The position numbers and the translations under genes were made by a program. A stretch of 64,000 nt of DNA from Candidatus Bathyarchaeota archaeon. GTDB lineage: Archaea; Thermoproteota; Bathyarchaeia; Bathyarchaeales; Bathycorpusculaceae. Location of the stretch: contig OY970176.1 in the NCBI GenBank assembly GCA_963707955.1, positions 576,001 to 640,000 of the forward strand, in the 5' to 3' direction. A model generated the notes under the pieces. The model saw only the letters and a list, made by a program, of their open reading frames with translations, searched no databases and was not told the DNA's origin. Positions within the stretch are counted from its first letter, which is position 1, and each line of letters begins with the position of its first letter. Shown here piece by piece: positions 1-37,695 of the stretch.

Positions 1-17
1 TAGCTATTCGACATAAC

Positions 18-239
18 ATGGCCCAAGAGTCTAGGCTAGAAGGGCAAGTTCTCCGAGACCAAGAAAACTTGGCTATTTCTAGATCTCTAAAGTGGGGCCA
101 CAGGCTAGAAAGAGACTCTAAGATTTCTTCTTCCCTTCATAATCAGACCATTTCCAAAGATTCTCACATAGACTCTCAGAGTCTCCTAGCAACCTATAGA
201 CAGTATCTAATAGACTACTTTGGAGGTGATACAGAATGA
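18..239 (+). CDS. hypothetical protein (AT-rich foreign segment)
   Basis: 73-aa ORF whose stop overlaps the next start (ATGA); no recognisable motif. Confidence 0.35.
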   Translation: MAQESRLEGQVLRDQENLAISRSLKWGHRLERDSKISSSLHNQTISKDSHIDSQSLLATYRQYLIDYFGGDTE

Positions 240-487
240 CAGAGAAAAGTAAGCCTAAGAAGAGAGAGATCTTTGGAGATCCTAAGCAGAGTCTAACATG
301 CTCTATCTGTCATGAGACTAAGCCATTAACAACTGAGTTCTTCTGGATTTATAAAGACAAGAGAAACGGGCCTAAGATCTTAGATAACGTGTACTTCCAA
401 GGTAAGACTAACGGTAAAGGCCCGGGCTGCAAAGCTTGTTATAAACTATATAGAAAGAGACTAGCTAGAAAGAAAGAGAATAACTAA
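236..487 (+). CDS. small CxxC...CxxC zinc-binding protein, virus/MGE-like
   Basis: GGAGGTGA RBS; CSICHETKPLTTEFF...CKACY resembles Zn modules of phage HNH/endonuclease VII-type proteins; followed by a T-run. Confidence 0.55.
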   Translation: MTEKSKPKKREIFGDPKQSLTCSICHETKPLTTEFFWIYKDKRNGPKILDNVYFQGKTNGKGPGCKACYKLYRKRLARKKENN

Positions 488-575
488 GATCTCTTCTATC
501 CTTTTTTTCTCATATTCTTGTTTCAGCTTGACTAAGGCTTTTTTTATGTCATGACTTAGACTAGAAAAAGAGTCA

Positions 576-926
576 TTATGTTTTTGAGTTTAGAATATTA
601 TTTAGAGCTTGCAGTTCTAAAAGTTCTTCTTCCGTGATATTTCGGTCTTTCAGTTTTTGTTCTAATTCATCTTTTCTTTCTCTCATTTTCAAGACTTCTA
701 CTTCTTTCCTCAATCCTAGAATGTAGTCTCTCTTTTTCTCAAAATCAGCTCCAAGAGAGTCAAACTTTTTCCATGTTTCATGTTTGTCTTTATCAAGTTG
801 GGCTTCTCTCGCTTCTGTCTCTTTTTCAGTTTCAAATGGGGTAGACTTATTCTTTAATCTTGCATACTCTTTGCTTAGTTTTCCAATTTCATTATTCAAT
901 TCTTCAAATGCTTTATCATCTATCAT
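576..926 (-). CDS. coiled-coil hypothetical protein
   Basis: 116-aa E/K/L-rich ORF in AT-rich DNA. Confidence 0.6.
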   Translation of the reverse strand: MIDDKAFEELNNEIGKLSKEYARLKNKSTPFETEKETEAREAQLDKDKHETWKKFDSLGADFEKKRDYILGLRKEVEVLKMRERKDELEQKLKDRNITEEELLELQALNNILNSKT

Positions 927-1047
927 TTTTAAACCCCTAATTTGTCTTATGTTGCTATGCAGATATAAAATCTTTCACAATTCATTGTAATTCTCGCAAA
1001 ACCTATATTGATAGATTTTCAATGAGAAAAGGGAGTGAGAACTGATA

Positions 1048-2418
1048 ATGAAGTTGAGTTGGATATTGGTTCTAGTGTTCTTTCTATCGCTAGGGATAGG
1101 TCTGGTTCCCAAAAGCACTTGCCAGAATACGGACAATGTTGACATCACTATTTATCCTAATATCAGTGACATAGACTTCAAAAACGGAATCGTTACTTTC
1201 TCAAATCTCTATTTGGAGATTGATGCAAATGAGAGTTTTGCTGTCGGCATTTTTACCACCGCATTACAATCTCCCTCTTGGATAGACAACCGAGCAACCT
1301 ACGATAATAAAACTGGACTATACTCACTAAACCAAGAAGAATTCCCGAATGGTCGCCAACTCAAGTTTAGTCTTAAAGAAGATTTGACGCACTGGACACT
1401 CATTAATGACAGACTTGAATGTGGAATAGCAATAGGACTAAACATAACATCCAGTTTGGGAGTGAAGAATGTTTACCCCGGTCTTAATTTTCCTTTGCAA
1501 GATAACTGGAATGTTACGGCAACTATTACCGAAGCCACGCCCGCAGAGGCATCCCAATATGCACTTTATGGTATGCATGCGATAAATCAATCAATTTCAT
1601 CTAGCAATTTGACACAGTTCTACGTGATTAAGATTGATGTCATTCGCATTTCCGTGGGGATAAACGTAGTCTACTGGATTCCGCTCCTCTTTATGCTTGC
1701 ACTTCTTTTTGCTTCACTTAAACTGGTTCGAGAGAGGGATTTGGAAAATTCTTTGTTAGTTTATATCTCCGTTGATATTTTTGGTTTTGGTTATCTTCTG
1801 ACTCTAATGAACATCACTCCCTCAGTTATTACTTCAATAGATATTCTCACACTTGTCGATGTTTCATTGAGTTTTGTTTTCTCTATATGGGCAATTTTCA
1901 GACATCCTGCAAAGGGAGACAAAAAGAAGATTAAAAGCGAAAAGGTCTATAGTGAGACACAAAACAAGAATGTGAAGCCAATGGGTGAGGAACAAACTAC
2001 TGATGAGATTCTGAAACTTATTCGATTGGTTGACAATCAAAAAGACAAGTTGTTTAGAGCCCGTGACCTTATTTACAGTTGGTCTTTTATCTTCTTAGCC
2101 ATATTTGTGCTATACCTTTTCGTAGAGCCTATTTTGCTTTTCAGCACGCCGTCATCAACTGATAAGGCTATATTGACTTTATCCTTCGTTACAGTGATCG
2201 TTGCAATCTTAGCTCTCATTGTACCATTTTCCAAAGAAACCATAATTTTGAAGAGTTTCAAGAGATTGGAAATGTGTGTCGAGGAAGACAAGAAACCTCT
2301 GCTTAAAGCGTTAATCAAGATAAAAAGCAAAAACAATGAATTTTGCCTAGAACAGATTTACAACATGGACAAAGGTATGTTCACGAAAGAAGAACTGATT
2401 AAAAGGCTATATGAGTAG
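1048..2418 (+). CDS. membrane protein with signal peptide, extracellular domain and several TM helices
   Basis: hydrophobic N-terminus, N-x-S/T-rich domain, about 5 TM segments; AT-rich. Confidence 0.65.
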   Translation: MKLSWILVLVFFLSLGIGLVPKSTCQNTDNVDITIYPNISDIDFKNGIVTFSNLYLEIDANESFAVGIFTTALQSPSWIDNRATYDNKTGLYSLNQEEFPNGRQLKFSLKEDLTHWTLINDRLECGIAIGLNITSSLGVKNVYPGLNFPLQDNWNVTATITEATPAEASQYALYGMHAINQSISSSNLTQFYVIKIDVIRISVGINVVYWIPLLFMLALLFASLKLVRERDLENSLLVYISVDIFGFGYLLTLMNITPSVITSIDILTLVDVSLSFVFSIWAIFRHPAKGDKKKIKSEKVYSETQNKNVKPMGEEQTTDEILKLIRLVDNQKDKLFRARDLIYSWSFIFLAIFVLYLFVEPILLFSTPSSTDKAILTLSFVTVIVAILALIVPFSKETIILKSFKRLEMCVEEDKKPLLKALIKIKSKNNEFCLEQIYNMDKGMFTKEELIKRLYE

Positions 2419-33654: not shown

Positions 33655-33732
33655 TGGTGGGGCTGCCCGGATTTGAACCGGGGTCACGAGCGCCCGAGGC
33701 TCATAGCCTAGACCAAGCTAGCCGACAGCCCC
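33655..33732 (-). tRNA. tRNA-Pro(CGG); CCA encoded
   Basis: GGGGCTG...TGAGC-CT-CGG-GC-GCTCG...GGTTCAAATCC...CAGCCCCACCA. Confidence 0.95.
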
Positions 33733-33827
33733 TTGAAGCTGAAACTCTCATTTCAGGCGAGAAAAATAAGTGTTCCTCAACGCCTTTAAACCCTTACTCC
33801 TAAATAATACGCTTACGGTTTCGAGGG

Positions 33828-36050
33828 TTGGAGAGAGAGTTGTCTGTTCCCCAACGGGTCCGCGGGGTCAGGATACTGAAGGCTGTCTCGTCACCTTTGA
33901 GGCTGCAGATTTTGAACTTGCTTTTTGACGAGGGCCCGCTTTCTTACACTGAACTGATGGGTTCTCTCAAGATGAACCCCAGCAGGGATGCTGGAAGGTT
34001 TGCGTACCACCTGAAATTCTTGCTCAAGGCGGACTTGATCGAAGCGGATGTCGAGGCGAGGAAGTATCGCTTAACCGAACTGGGGAAGATGGTCATTGAC
34101 GTTGCGGACAAAATTGATAAGAAAGCTTTCAAGCCGAGAAGTGCGCTTGTTCGGACGAGCCGTCTTGCACTTGAAGAGTTTGATGCTAACAAGATTGCGA
34201 GCTCGTTGACAAGAGAAGCGAAGATGCCTGCTGAGCTTGCGCAAAGAGTGGCCAAAGAAGCAGAGAAACAGCTGATTCGGGCAAGAACGAAGTATTTGAC
34301 TGCTCCACTCGTGAGAGAAGTCGTGAACGCGATCTTGATAGAGAAAGGCTTGGAAGAGTATCGACACAAGCTTACACGGTTGGGAATACCTGTTCACGAC
34401 GTGACCAGTCTTTTAGAATCGAGGAACATAACCCCTCACGAAACGGTCTCAGCGCAGGAATCAGCTGGTGAAACAGTCTTCAAGGAGTACACGCTGCTGA
34501 ACATTCTCCCAAGAGACGTTTCAGATGCTCACTTGTCAGGTTCCTTACACCTCAACGGCTTAAGCTCATGGATCCTGAAGCCTAATGAAATAATGCACGA
34601 CCTCCGATTCTTTTTAGGAAACGGCTTAGACCTGGAGAGAATTGACCCGCTGCAACAGTCCCAACCTGCACCTCAGAACTTTCAGGCCGCGCTTTCTTTA
34701 ACTTTCAACGTTCTTCTGCACAGCGCTAAAGAAGTCGACACCATGCAGACACTCGACTACTTCAACGTGTTCCTAGCCCCATTCGCCAAGGATGCTGAAA
34801 CCTCTAAGGTCAAAGAAGCTTTGCGGTTGTTCACTGCAAGCTTGGCTCAGCACGCACATGTTTCTCTAGGCCTGGAGCTGACTGTTCCAGACTTCTTGGC
34901 TGAGAAGCAAGCCGTGGGTCCTGGTGGAAAGCCTATCGGCACTTACGCAGATTTCACTGAACAGGTCCAGCTTTTGGCATCTCTCTTGCTTGAGGTCTTC
35001 GCTGAAGAGGGTAGCCGTAAGCCGCTGACGGACCCGGAGCTTGTCCTGAAAATCCGCGCAGAAACCACCTCGAATGAAAGAGCAAAAGCGTTGCTGCTGA
35101 AAGCTCACAGCCTAGCTTCAGAAAGAGGCGTTCTATACTTTGCCAACGCGCTCAAGAAGGAGAGGAAACATTCCGTTTTTTCTTCATCAGGGCTTGTGCT
35201 CGACACAGATTTGAGCGGTGACTGGGAAATTGACACGTTGCGCACAGGGTGTCTCGGAGTCGTAACGATCAATGTTCCGCGAATCGCGTATGAATCGTGC
35301 AGAGACCAGACAAAATTCCTTGAAATCCTAAAGGAAAGGATTGAGATGGCAGACAGGGCGCTAGAAATCAAACATAGGGCCCTGACGCATCGCGGCAAGA
35401 ATCTGCTGCCGTTTATCATGCAGGGCGGCAGTGGAGACCAATACTTCAGACTTGAAAGCTGTTCTCGCATAATAAACTTGGCGGGGTTGAAACAGGGTGC
35501 TGAGATGTTCTGTGAAAAAAGTGCTGGCGACGAAAAGACATTAGCCTTCTCAGCGGAAATCGCACGAGACGTTTCAGTCTACGTTCAGAAGATCGGCAGA
35601 AGACGCGGAAAACGCTTGTCCGCTGCGATGCTTCCCAACTGCGAAGCTTCTAAGAGACTGGCCCAGATGGACATCGAAAGGTACGGAGTTGCGAAAGTGA
35701 AGTTTTCAGGCGTGAGAGAGAAGCCTTTCTACTCCACTGCCAACCGAATACCGATTACCGGCGGAAGGGTCGCAGAAGAATCGTTGACGTTTGAAGATAA
35801 GCTGGCCGAAGCGCATGTTGGTGGAAGCCTAACGGTCGTCGACCTTGGCGAGAGCAAGCATGAGCCTGAAGAGCTTATGGCAATTACTAGACAGCTCACT
35901 GAAGGTCACAACGTAGACGTCTTCACTTATGACCGCAAACTCACCTATTGCGTCAGCTGCAAGAAAAGCTGGTTTGGCCTACTGCACAAGTGCCCCTCAT
36001 GCGGAGCGGTGGGAACGTTAGCCTTCCTTGACAGGTTCATGGGCACGTGA
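33828..36050 (+). CDS. ArsR-type wHTH + ATP-cone + degenerate class III ribonucleotide reductase (NrdD-like) fusion
   Basis: RLQILNLL...FAYHLKFL wHTH; EEFDANKI ATP-cone; AHLSG, DTLRTG..TINVPRIA; C-terminal CxxC-CPxCG. Confidence 0.85.
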   Translation: MERELSVPQRVRGVRILKAVSSPLRLQILNLLFDEGPLSYTELMGSLKMNPSRDAGRFAYHLKFLLKADLIEADVEARKYRLTELGKMVIDVADKIDKKAFKPRSALVRTSRLALEEFDANKIASSLTREAKMPAELAQRVAKEAEKQLIRARTKYLTAPLVREVVNAILIEKGLEEYRHKLTRLGIPVHDVTSLLESRNITPHETVSAQESAGETVFKEYTLLNILPRDVSDAHLSGSLHLNGLSSWILKPNEIMHDLRFFLGNGLDLERIDPLQQSQPAPQNFQAALSLTFNVLLHSAKEVDTMQTLDYFNVFLAPFAKDAETSKVKEALRLFTASLAQHAHVSLGLELTVPDFLAEKQAVGPGGKPIGTYADFTEQVQLLASLLLEVFAEEGSRKPLTDPELVLKIRAETTSNERAKALLLKAHSLASERGVLYFANALKKERKHSVFSSSGLVLDTDLSGDWEIDTLRTGCLGVVTINVPRIAYESCRDQTKFLEILKERIEMADRALEIKHRALTHRGKNLLPFIMQGGSGDQYFRLESCSRIINLAGLKQGAEMFCEKSAGDEKTLAFSAEIARDVSVYVQKIGRRRGKRLSAAMLPNCEASKRLAQMDIERYGVAKVKFSGVREKPFYSTANRIPITGGRVAEESLTFEDKLAEAHVGGSLTVVDLGESKHEPEELMAITRQLTEGHNVDVFTYDRKLTYCVSCKKSWFGLLHKCPSCGAVGTLAFLDRFMGT

Positions 36051-36072: not shown

Positions 36073-37020
<948 letters not shown>

Positions 37021-37224
37021 CTACTAGATAAGAATTTGTGGCACTCCTTCTAGCGTGCGCTAGCGCAAATCGACATACCCACTTCATCTTGCGGCTTCAG
37101 AAAACACGTAAAGAATTTGGCGGTTTTCTTCTCTATTCACGCAGAGAAAAGTCTCACTCTGCCAAGGATTAAAGTCTTTTATCTGCGGTTGTGGTATTAC
37201 CGTTTTCTTAGAAGGGAATTTCGA

Positions 37225-37695
37225 ATGACCGAGACTGAGCTGAGGGTTTCAAAGATCAAGGATGGCACAGTTATTGATCACATAACGAGAGGACACGCGT
37301 TGGACGTTGTCAAGATTCTGGGCATCACAGGAAACGACAAGGGCCCTATCACGATCGCCATTAATGTTCCGAGTAAACGGTTAAGGACGAAGGACATCGT
37401 CAAGATAGAGGGCAGGGAATTGAAGCCGCAGGAAGTTCACAAGATCGCTTTGATCGCGCCGCATGCTAGCATTAACATCATTCGAGGCTACAAAGTTGTA
37501 AAAAAGGAAGAGGTGAAGCTGCCAAAAGTCATTGACGACATTATCAAGTGCGCCAACCCAGCTTGCATAAGCAACAGCAATGAGCCTGTTAAAGCCAGGT
37601 TCTACGTTGAATGCGAGGAACCGCTGTTATTGAAGTGCCACTACTGTGGCTACATCGTCGAAAAGAAAGATGTGTTGCAGCAGTTTTGGTATTAG
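37225..37695 (+). CDS. pyrI: aspartate carbamoyltransferase regulatory subunit
   Basis: IKDGTVIDHI, KDIVKIE, CANPACIS, CHYC. Confidence 0.95.
   Translation: MTETELRVSKIKDGTVIDHITRGHALDVVKILGITGNDKGPITIAINVPSKRLRTKDIVKIEGRELKPQEVHKIALIAPHASINIIRGYKVVKKEEVKLPKVIDDIIKCANPACISNSNEPVKARFYVECEEPLLLKCHYCGYIVEKKDVLQQFWY

Follow-up and report, generated by a model that had tools for sequence, protein, structure and literature searches.

In bacteria, the transcription of ribonucleotide reductase (RNR) genes is controlled by NrdR, a well-described nucleotide-sensing repressor of about 150 amino acids (aa) in which an N-terminal Zn ribbon for DNA is joined to an ATP-cone. In the 64-kb window studied here (the whole stretch of DNA analysed, 64,000 nucleotides of contig OY970176.1 from a Candidatus Bathyarchaeota archaeon), the gene at positions 33840 to 36050 codes for a protein in which a DNA-binding module is also joined to an ATP-cone. 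Genes of this focal family often lie directly upstream of RNR genes, as nrdR does, implying that they may work in an NrdR-like manner. In other respects the two proteins differ. The focal protein has an ArsR-type winged helix-turn-helix (wHTH), and its barrel, about 530 aa long, descends from NrdD, the class III RNR; its cone is without the canonical Lys-Arg pair; and its NCBIfam matches do not include TIGR00244. The alignments described below lend good support to the view that the protein is a catalytically dead NrdD paralogue. With moderate confidence, we further suggest that it controls nucleotide supply as a ligand-responsive transcription regulator and would be the functional counterpart of bacterial NrdR in archaea.

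Class III NrdD enzymes share with the focal family a homologous barrel, a Zn ribbon and an N-terminal ATP-cone, and the family branches beside the archaeal NrdDs. Unlike these enzymes, the family lacks the first Cys, a conserved finger-loop Cys, an intact HxHD motif and the glycyl motif, has an added wHTH and, in the focal clade, has a truncated C-terminal domain. The likeness to ArsR/SmtB regulators (PF01022) lies in the recognition-helix signature x-H-L-K-x-L..A.L, which aligned with that of ArsR 6J05, but in the focal protein about 640 RNR-derived residues follow the HTH, and its score of 31.3 bits fell under the cut-off of 55 for the NCBIfam ArsR/SmtB subfamily NF033788. Some HTH-less degenerate NrdD paralogues (P0185-P0187, P0212 and P0250) likewise retain their ATP-cones but neither the catalytic Cys nor the glycyl motif. 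Unlike the focal family, they have no DNA-binding domain and arise separately in the canonical clade. In the literature searched, with most subscription journals outside its scope, no account was found of an HTH-ATP-cone-NrdD pseudoenzyme, nor of a dedicated archaeal counterpart of NrdR-type RNR control. The passages of PMC9669993, PMC9531940 and bioRxiv 10.1101/2025.03.28.645925 reached by term look-ups also contained no description of this architecture. The focal family is a large archaeal family that has apparently not been studied.

The open frame at 33828 to 36050 on the forward strand spans 740 aa. We favoured the second TTG (33840) as the start, because most homologues are 736 aa long; the Pfam domain coordinates given here are numbered on the 740-aa frame. 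The preliminary description of this DNA, made by eye, had named a wHTH, an ATP-cone, an NrdD-like barrel and a Zn ribbon, and all four were recovered by Pfam or as CxxC pairs (Table 1). The N-terminal region matched DUF7347 (aa 17-91, 32.3 bits) and HTH_5 (PF01022, aa 22-72), the latter with 28 bits against a cut-off of 22. The best match of the N-terminal profile in the PDB was ArsR 6J05 (E 6.4e-4), and D50, A51, G52, F54, Y56, H57 and L58 were invariant HTH residues in the family alignment. The ATP-cone (PF03477, aa 112-178) was barely above its cut-off, with 26.6 against 25.8 bits. The NRDD domain (PF13597, aa 206-738) scored 211 bits with an E value of 4e-62, and the barrel family profile matched NrdD structures of the PDB with E values from 1.9e-39 to 4.4e-30; the solved structures of NrdD include 1H78, 4COI, 8P23 and 9D3X. 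Against the NrdD equivalog TIGR02487 the protein reached 232.5 bits, under the cut-off of 326.35. The four Zn-ribbon Cys residues (C704 and C707 of CVSC, C718 and C721 of CPSC) were invariant in a family alignment of 23 sequences. Mean column identity was 64% across the N-terminal 190 aa and 46% over the full length.

Table 1. Positions in the 64-kb window of the focal gene, its parts and its neighbours.
Feature	Position	Strand	Basis and remarks
Candidate TATA box TTTAAAC	33785..33791	+	Upstream alignments; putative promoter, about 55 nt before the start
Conserved block CTAAATAATAC, candidate operator	33800..33810	+	Alignments; between candidate TATA box and expected transcription start
Coding sequence	33840..36050	+	736 aa and stop; TTG start, alternative TTG at 33828
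ArsR-type winged helix-turn-helix (DUF7347/HTH_5)	33876..34100	+	Pfam; profile match to ArsR 6J05
Recognition-helix region DAGRFAYHLKFL	33987-34022	+	Within the ArsR-type wHTH
Divergent ATP-cone	34161..34361	+	Pfam, family alignment
NrdD-like barrel without catalytic residues	34443..36041	+	Pfam, NCBIfam, PDB profile matches
SLHLNG, degenerate counterpart of the HxHD motif	34542..34559	+	Alignments
KPNEIMHDL, Glu (34587-34589) replacing the first catalytic Cys (E. coli C175)	34578..34604	+	MAFFT alignments
SSSGLVL, Cys-free remnant of the Cys-radical finger loop (canonical MGCR; E. coli C384)	35181..35201	+	Alignments
Zn ribbon CVSC...CPSC	35949..36002	+	Four Cys invariant in family alignment
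Short C-terminal tail AVGTL...FMGT in place of the glycyl-radical domain	36006..36047	+	Alignments
tRNA-Pro(CGG), divergent upstream neighbour	33655..33732	-	ARAGORN
pyrB (aspartate carbamoyltransferase)	36073..36987	-	TIGR00670, 398 bits; convergent, 22-bp gap to focal gene
pyrI (regulatory subunit of aspartate carbamoyltransferase)	37225..37695	+	Divergent from pyrB

Residues were mapped by sequence and profile alignments, with MAFFT aligning the focal protein with the genome's own NrdD, with E. coli NrdD (C175, C384 and G681) and with archaeal NrdD representatives. KPNEIMHDL aligned with the RPNC/NCMLIDL of canonical NrdDs, so that Glu stood in place of Cys at the C175 position. The finger-loop segment was free of Cys. 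Both losses had been claimed in the preliminary description, which also noted a Cys in place of the Asn that follows the finger loop. That Cys was indeed present (LRTGC, against the archaeal IRTGN), but the position held C, L or S across the family, and since it varies in this way it is not a conserved replacement. SLHLNG occupied the position of IHIHDL/IHYHDL in canonical NrdDs, where HxHD is described in a passage of PMC11226230 as the triphosphate-binding motif of NrdD.

At the C-terminus, the earlier reading needed correction. RFMGT at the very end had been taken as the counterpart of the glycyl-radical RITGY loop. The glycyl motif was missing as claimed, but the Gly of FMGT was not conserved, with relatives ending in ...FALV, FASM or FAST, and MAFFT instead paired AVGTL, 4 residues past the last Zn Cys, with the canonical VVGYL, found 12-16 residues past it. 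The Gly of AVGTL was itself replaced by Ser in some family members. Under either alignment of the C-terminus, the focal protein contained no R-x-x-G-[YFW] glycyl-radical motif; it terminates 15 residues past the last Zn-ribbon Cys. The more distant family members have a longer C-terminus resembling YSRxxxxY, in which the Gly is replaced or displaced, while this region is truncated in the focal clade. Many NrdD-conserved residues are still present in the focal protein, among them DAH..G, HD, NxPR, R606, D611, Y631 and GG.

The losses extended to the whole family. We surveyed 257 sequences of at most 830 aa, of which 212 were HTH-bearing according to a purpose-built hidden Markov model and 45, the canonical NrdDs among them, were without the HTH. 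The first-Cys column held Cys in none of the 212 HTH-bearing members and Glu in 137. The R-x-x-G-[YFW] motif within the last 70 aa was likewise found in 0/212, compared with 9/45 of the HTH-less rows. At least two CxxC pairs within the last 110 residues were retained by 186 of the 212.

The gene is not decaying. When it was compared with three orthologues of 90-92% identity, dN/dS was 0.15-0.19 for the whole gene, 0.01-0.05 for the wHTH, 0-0.05 for the ATP-cone and 0.20-0.24 for the barrel. Thus, the barrel was the least constrained domain and the HTH was among the most constrained parts. The frame was free of stops in all 10 orthologues tested, which together with the dN/dS values ruled out a pseudogene. 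The family clearly illustrates how an enzyme can become what is likely a scaffold for ligand sensing.

Relatives of the focal protein were numerous. A database clustered at 90% gave 1787 matches, and nearly all of the best 120 (63-100% identity) combined HTH, ATP-cone and NRDD. Their source labels read 'anaerobic ribonucleoside-triphosphate reductase' or 'ArsR family transcriptional regulator'. The former label can falsely credit genomes with a class III RNR, even those without any other NrdD or NrdG. A library of 50% representatives yielded 1763 matches with E <= 1e-3, of which 343 reached E <= 1e-30, and a relative was encoded in 571 GTDB species genomes. A 200-position profile of HTH and ATP-cone matched 109 of the 151 sampled genomes of the phylum, usually with one copy per genome; by family code it matched 20/20 genomes of f29, 15/15 of f34 and 12/12 of f33, and none of the 13 of f37 or the 6 of f43. 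Proteins matched by a profile built from distant members carried names that included Lokiarchaeia, Freyarchaeota, Jordarchaeum, Promethearchaeota, Methanomethylicota/Verstraetearchaeota and Methanosuratincola, so that by source name the relatives extend to Asgard lineages; all taxon names of relatives are source labels or, as mere leads, ESM Atlas cluster labels. The best 80 loci of the 571-genome search were from Bathyarchaeia, except for two contigs labelled as Acidobacteria-type metagenome-assembled genomes. These contigs (L019 and L085, titled Acidiferrales/Acidoferrum) carry an archaeal locus of 92% and 59% identity with the same pyrB arrangement, and they are probably mis-binned. One f33 genome (locus L130, G086:C13) has a second, Bathyarchaeia-like copy with 45% identity to the focal protein, next to a gene of the phage-integrase family, which hints at occasional transfer of the gene.

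An IQ-TREE phylogeny of 59 rows placed all 33 HTH-bearing rows in one clade with an SH-aLRT support of 100. Its sister group (support 84) was a clade of canonical NrdDs from archaea, and the genome's own NrdD fell outside both. The HTH-bearing family thus has a single origin and is derived from an archaeal NrdD. No HTH fused to an intact NrdD was seen: the N-terminal extensions of P0175, P0182 and P0232 proved to be ATP-cone sequence, amounting to a second ATP-cone in P0175 and P0182. The tree also contained HTH-less degenerate NrdD-like proteins (P0185-P0187, P0212, P0218, P0250, P0251 and P0266) with one or two ATP-cones and without the catalytic Cys or the glycyl motif. Within the clade of canonical archaeal NrdDs, the HTH-less degenerate paralogues fell into no fewer than two separate groups, which implies separate losses of catalysis.

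The family adjoins RNR genes of two classes, II and III. We sampled the class with the PF13597 profile in 61 Bathyarchaeia genomes, in which the scores were bimodal, with canonical proteins at 425 bits or more and degenerate ones at about 130-325 bits. In 9 genomes, the degenerate gene lay directly upstream of, and on the same strand as, a canonical NrdD gene of a second type (470-530 bits), and the pair was followed by a convergent pyrB in 5 of the 9. In f29, whose closed genomes are of about 1.6 Mb, the neighbour in 19 of 20 genomes was nrdJ, the gene of a class II RNR (TIGR02504, 710-728 bits); in 18 of them the family gene lay directly upstream on the same strand and in one it was divergent, and in the remaining genome the contig was too short. 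A PF02867 RNR gene was directly downstream at 3 of 4 loci in f9. At the loci examined in f34, f33, f39, f49, f50, f52 and f8, no nucleotide-metabolism neighbour was seen. Adjacency to RNR genes is thus a trait of particular lineages.

In the focal clade the conserved neighbour was pyrB. The convergence of the focal gene on pyrB, proposed in the preliminary description, was borne out by TIGR00670. We sampled 80 focal-clade loci, 4 of which end at the gene and two of which (L077 and L087) are rearranged; of the 76 with downstream DNA, 74 had a convergent pyrB on that side at a distance of 8-98 bp. The upstream protein-coding neighbours varied, while the divergent tRNA-Pro was kept, its 3' part (AGCCGACAGCCCC) recurring upstream of many orthologues.

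The focal genome, a single contig of 2.35 Mb, contained other RNR genes, which ruled out the focal gene as its sole RNR. A canonical NrdD (651 bits with PF13597) carried the motifs YCVGWDL, MCCRL and RVVGYLRPV and belonged to an nrdR-nrdD-nrdG operon at about 423.8-426.9 kb of the contig, some 184 kb from the focal gene. The preliminary description had remarked that no nrdG lies next to the focal gene. No nrdG was found in the 64-kb window with TIGR02495, and the sole above-cut-off match in the genome was the NrdG2 gene beside the canonical nrdD (167.6 bits, position 426359). A class II RNR of 696 aa (PF02867) was encoded elsewhere. Directly upstream of the canonical nrdD-nrdG was a bona fide nrdR, with 168.5 bits for TIGR00244 against a cut-off of 124.65. 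NrdR is said to be absent from Archaea in passages of bioRxiv 10.1101/2025.03.28.645925 and to be present in 'some archaea' in the abstract of PMC9110341. Bacteria may be the source of this operon.

The reading of the focal protein as a regulator of nucleotide supply is drawn from its architecture and gene neighbourhood, from which we also infer DNA binding, a ligand, dimerisation and the target genes. The NrdD paralogue has acquired an ArsR-type wHTH at its N-terminus and kept a modified ATP-cone, and its barrel would still dimerise as in NrdD. Both wHTH domains of the dimer would bind the promoters of RNR genes, pyrimidine genes or both, and probably that of the gene itself. Occupancy of the ATP-cone, and possibly also of remnant nucleotide sites in the barrel, would then alter DNA binding or the oligomeric state. 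A wider form of the proposal, tentative and in our opinion unlikely to hold in full, is that the family is the main archaeal regulator of deoxyribonucleotide supply. The whole dead RNR would then serve as a sensor of the balance of several (d)NTPs, and not just of ATP versus dATP, made up of the ancestral specificity site at the dimer interface, the remnant substrate site and the modified cone, and would set the transcription of pyrBI and of whichever RNR class the lineage has. If this is true, the regulator was built by recycling the very enzyme that it regulates and has spread through Thermoproteota and Asgard archaea.

Several observations weigh against a regulator of this kind. A Thr-Ser pair replaces the phosphate-binding Lys-Arg pair of canonical cones, and the family profile gave no match to solved ATP-cones; the ligand may therefore be other than ATP or dATP. 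Footprinting and pattern searches found no clear operator motif shared by the promoter blocks of the focal gene and pyrB. Neither block recurred at other promoters of the genome, and the class II RNR promoters of relatives had no clear motif in common with them. In its own genome, the focal gene adjoins neither RNR locus, and the bona fide NrdR could cover RNR regulation. The focal clade may have lost the middle gene of a likely older order, dead gene > nrdD > < pyrB; this makes the adjacency to pyrB weaker as functional evidence, and it may be a relic of inherited gene order. The neighbourhood counts come from related genomes that share gene order and are not independent events. Finally, 32 of the 212 HTH-bearing members had a Cys no more than 4 residues away from the finger-loop column, and in 18 of these, judged by eye, the sequence was S-G-C-[KR]-L with the Cys at the canonical G-C position; across the family, the position behaves as unconstrained (C, L, F, I or V) and not as catalytic. 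Thus, of the earlier proposal of a dead RNR repurposed as a (d)NTP-sensing DNA-binding regulator, the dead enzyme was upheld by the residue losses and by purifying selection, while the (d)NTP-sensing regulator is also our preferred explanation but was in part supported, by architecture and gene neighbourhood, with a marginal ATP-cone and no operator found.

The cone and the pyr genes also bear on a different ligand. In place of the V-x-K-R-D-G of canonical cones, the family has the motif V-R-T-S-R (34149-34163). The Thr-Ser pair is flanked by Arg105, which is invariant in the family, and by the basic residue 108, giving the family motif R-[TS]-S-[RHK]. Compared by hhalign with the cone of the genome's own NrdD, the focal cone gave a weak match (probability 18%, E 0.0013). 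This invariant replacement of Lys-Arg would suit a DNA-binding regulator that senses a pyrimidine-pathway metabolite or another nucleotide in place of ATP or dATP, with pyrBI or carbamoyltransferase genes as its main targets. The adjacency to pyrB or pyrI in many families points the same way, with pyrI and/or pyrB as neighbour at one locus each in f35, f40, f46 and f47, as does the ornithine carbamoyltransferase gene that was the divergent neighbour at 4 loci of f36 and f41. We nevertheless judge such a protein distinctly unlikely, since in other lineages the gene is tightly adjacent to nrdD, nrdJ or a PF02867 RNR gene, and adjacency to pyrB can be explained by inherited gene order. The f36 and f41 members (L125-L128) are of about 530-600 aa and without the Zn ribbon, and the neighbouring ornithine carbamoyltransferases scored 377-412 bits with TIGR00658.

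The upstream regions were compared for signals. A TTTAA[AG] box was present in the corresponding region of 73 of 74 orthologous upstream regions, and the conserved blocks of the focal promoter were TAAC-N-TTTAAAC and CTAAATAATAC, the exact 11-mer of the latter occurring once in the genome. Immediately upstream of pyrB, some 40 nt (AAAAAGTTATTTAGGAGTTGCATAGAGTTG...) were strongly conserved across orthologous loci, with indels of lengths not divisible by three, and this block could comprise a promoter together with an operator or a leader element. In f29, the density of GATC was 19 per kb upstream of the family gene, 9.9 upstream of nrdJ and 4.8 over whole loci, and the boxes there (TGATC[CT]A-like; L119-L121 and L138-L154) are a candidate operator array of that lineage. 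GATC in the focal clade amounted to 0.53 per kb, with no enrichment. A conserved wHTH for which no operator was found, in a widespread family with usually a single copy per genome, would also fit a DNA-associated role other than transcription control, such as coupling nucleotide status to replication or chromatin. Such a role seems very unlikely to us, because the family's gene neighbours are specifically RNR and pyr genes and HTHs of the ArsR type are typically those of specific regulators.

The preliminary description had offered, as an alternative, a regulatory partner of an active NrdD. In that case the protein would be a non-catalytic heterodimer partner that modulates the enzyme, with the HTH secondary. 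A barrel and Zn ribbon kept under purifying selection and the tandem with a canonical nrdD in the 9 genomes would agree with this. However, the degenerate paralogue occurred alone in 18 of the 61 sampled Bathyarchaeia genomes, with 9 of those 18 verified as HTH-bearing and without the glycyl motif. In all 5 closed f29 genomes, PF13597 matched only the family gene itself (50-75 bits) and no other NrdD, and no NrdG was above the cut-off. As the gene occurs without NrdD and NrdG, partnership is not its general role. The HTH is moreover the most constrained part of the protein, and the canonical nrdD of the focal genome is about 184 kb away, so that we see very little chance for this explanation. 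An enzyme that acts on nucleotides without the help of the Cys pair or of a glycyl radical is scarcely credible, in spite of the many NrdD-conserved residues kept (e.g. DAH..G, NxPR, R606, D611 and Y631) and a barrel dN/dS of 0.2, because every element that ribonucleotide reduction is known to require is either absent or not conserved, no domain is less constrained than the barrel, and the TIGR02487 score is under the equivalog cut-off.

Some minor features of the locus may be added. The spacer that separates the focal gene from tRNA-Pro(CGG) (33733-33839) resembles a compact bidirectional promoter, in which AAAATAAG would be the TATA box for the tRNA on the minus strand and TTTAAAC that of the focal gene. 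Between these divergent candidate TATA boxes lies a GTGTT-N4-AACAC-like palindrome, perfect in many close orthologues and imperfect in the focal spacer; it did not recur at promoters elsewhere in the genome. The pyrB and pyrI genes are transcribed divergently across 36988-37224, and there is no pyrBI operon. The GC content was 0.37 in the first 2000 positions of the window (1-2000), compared with 0.44-0.52 across the rest.

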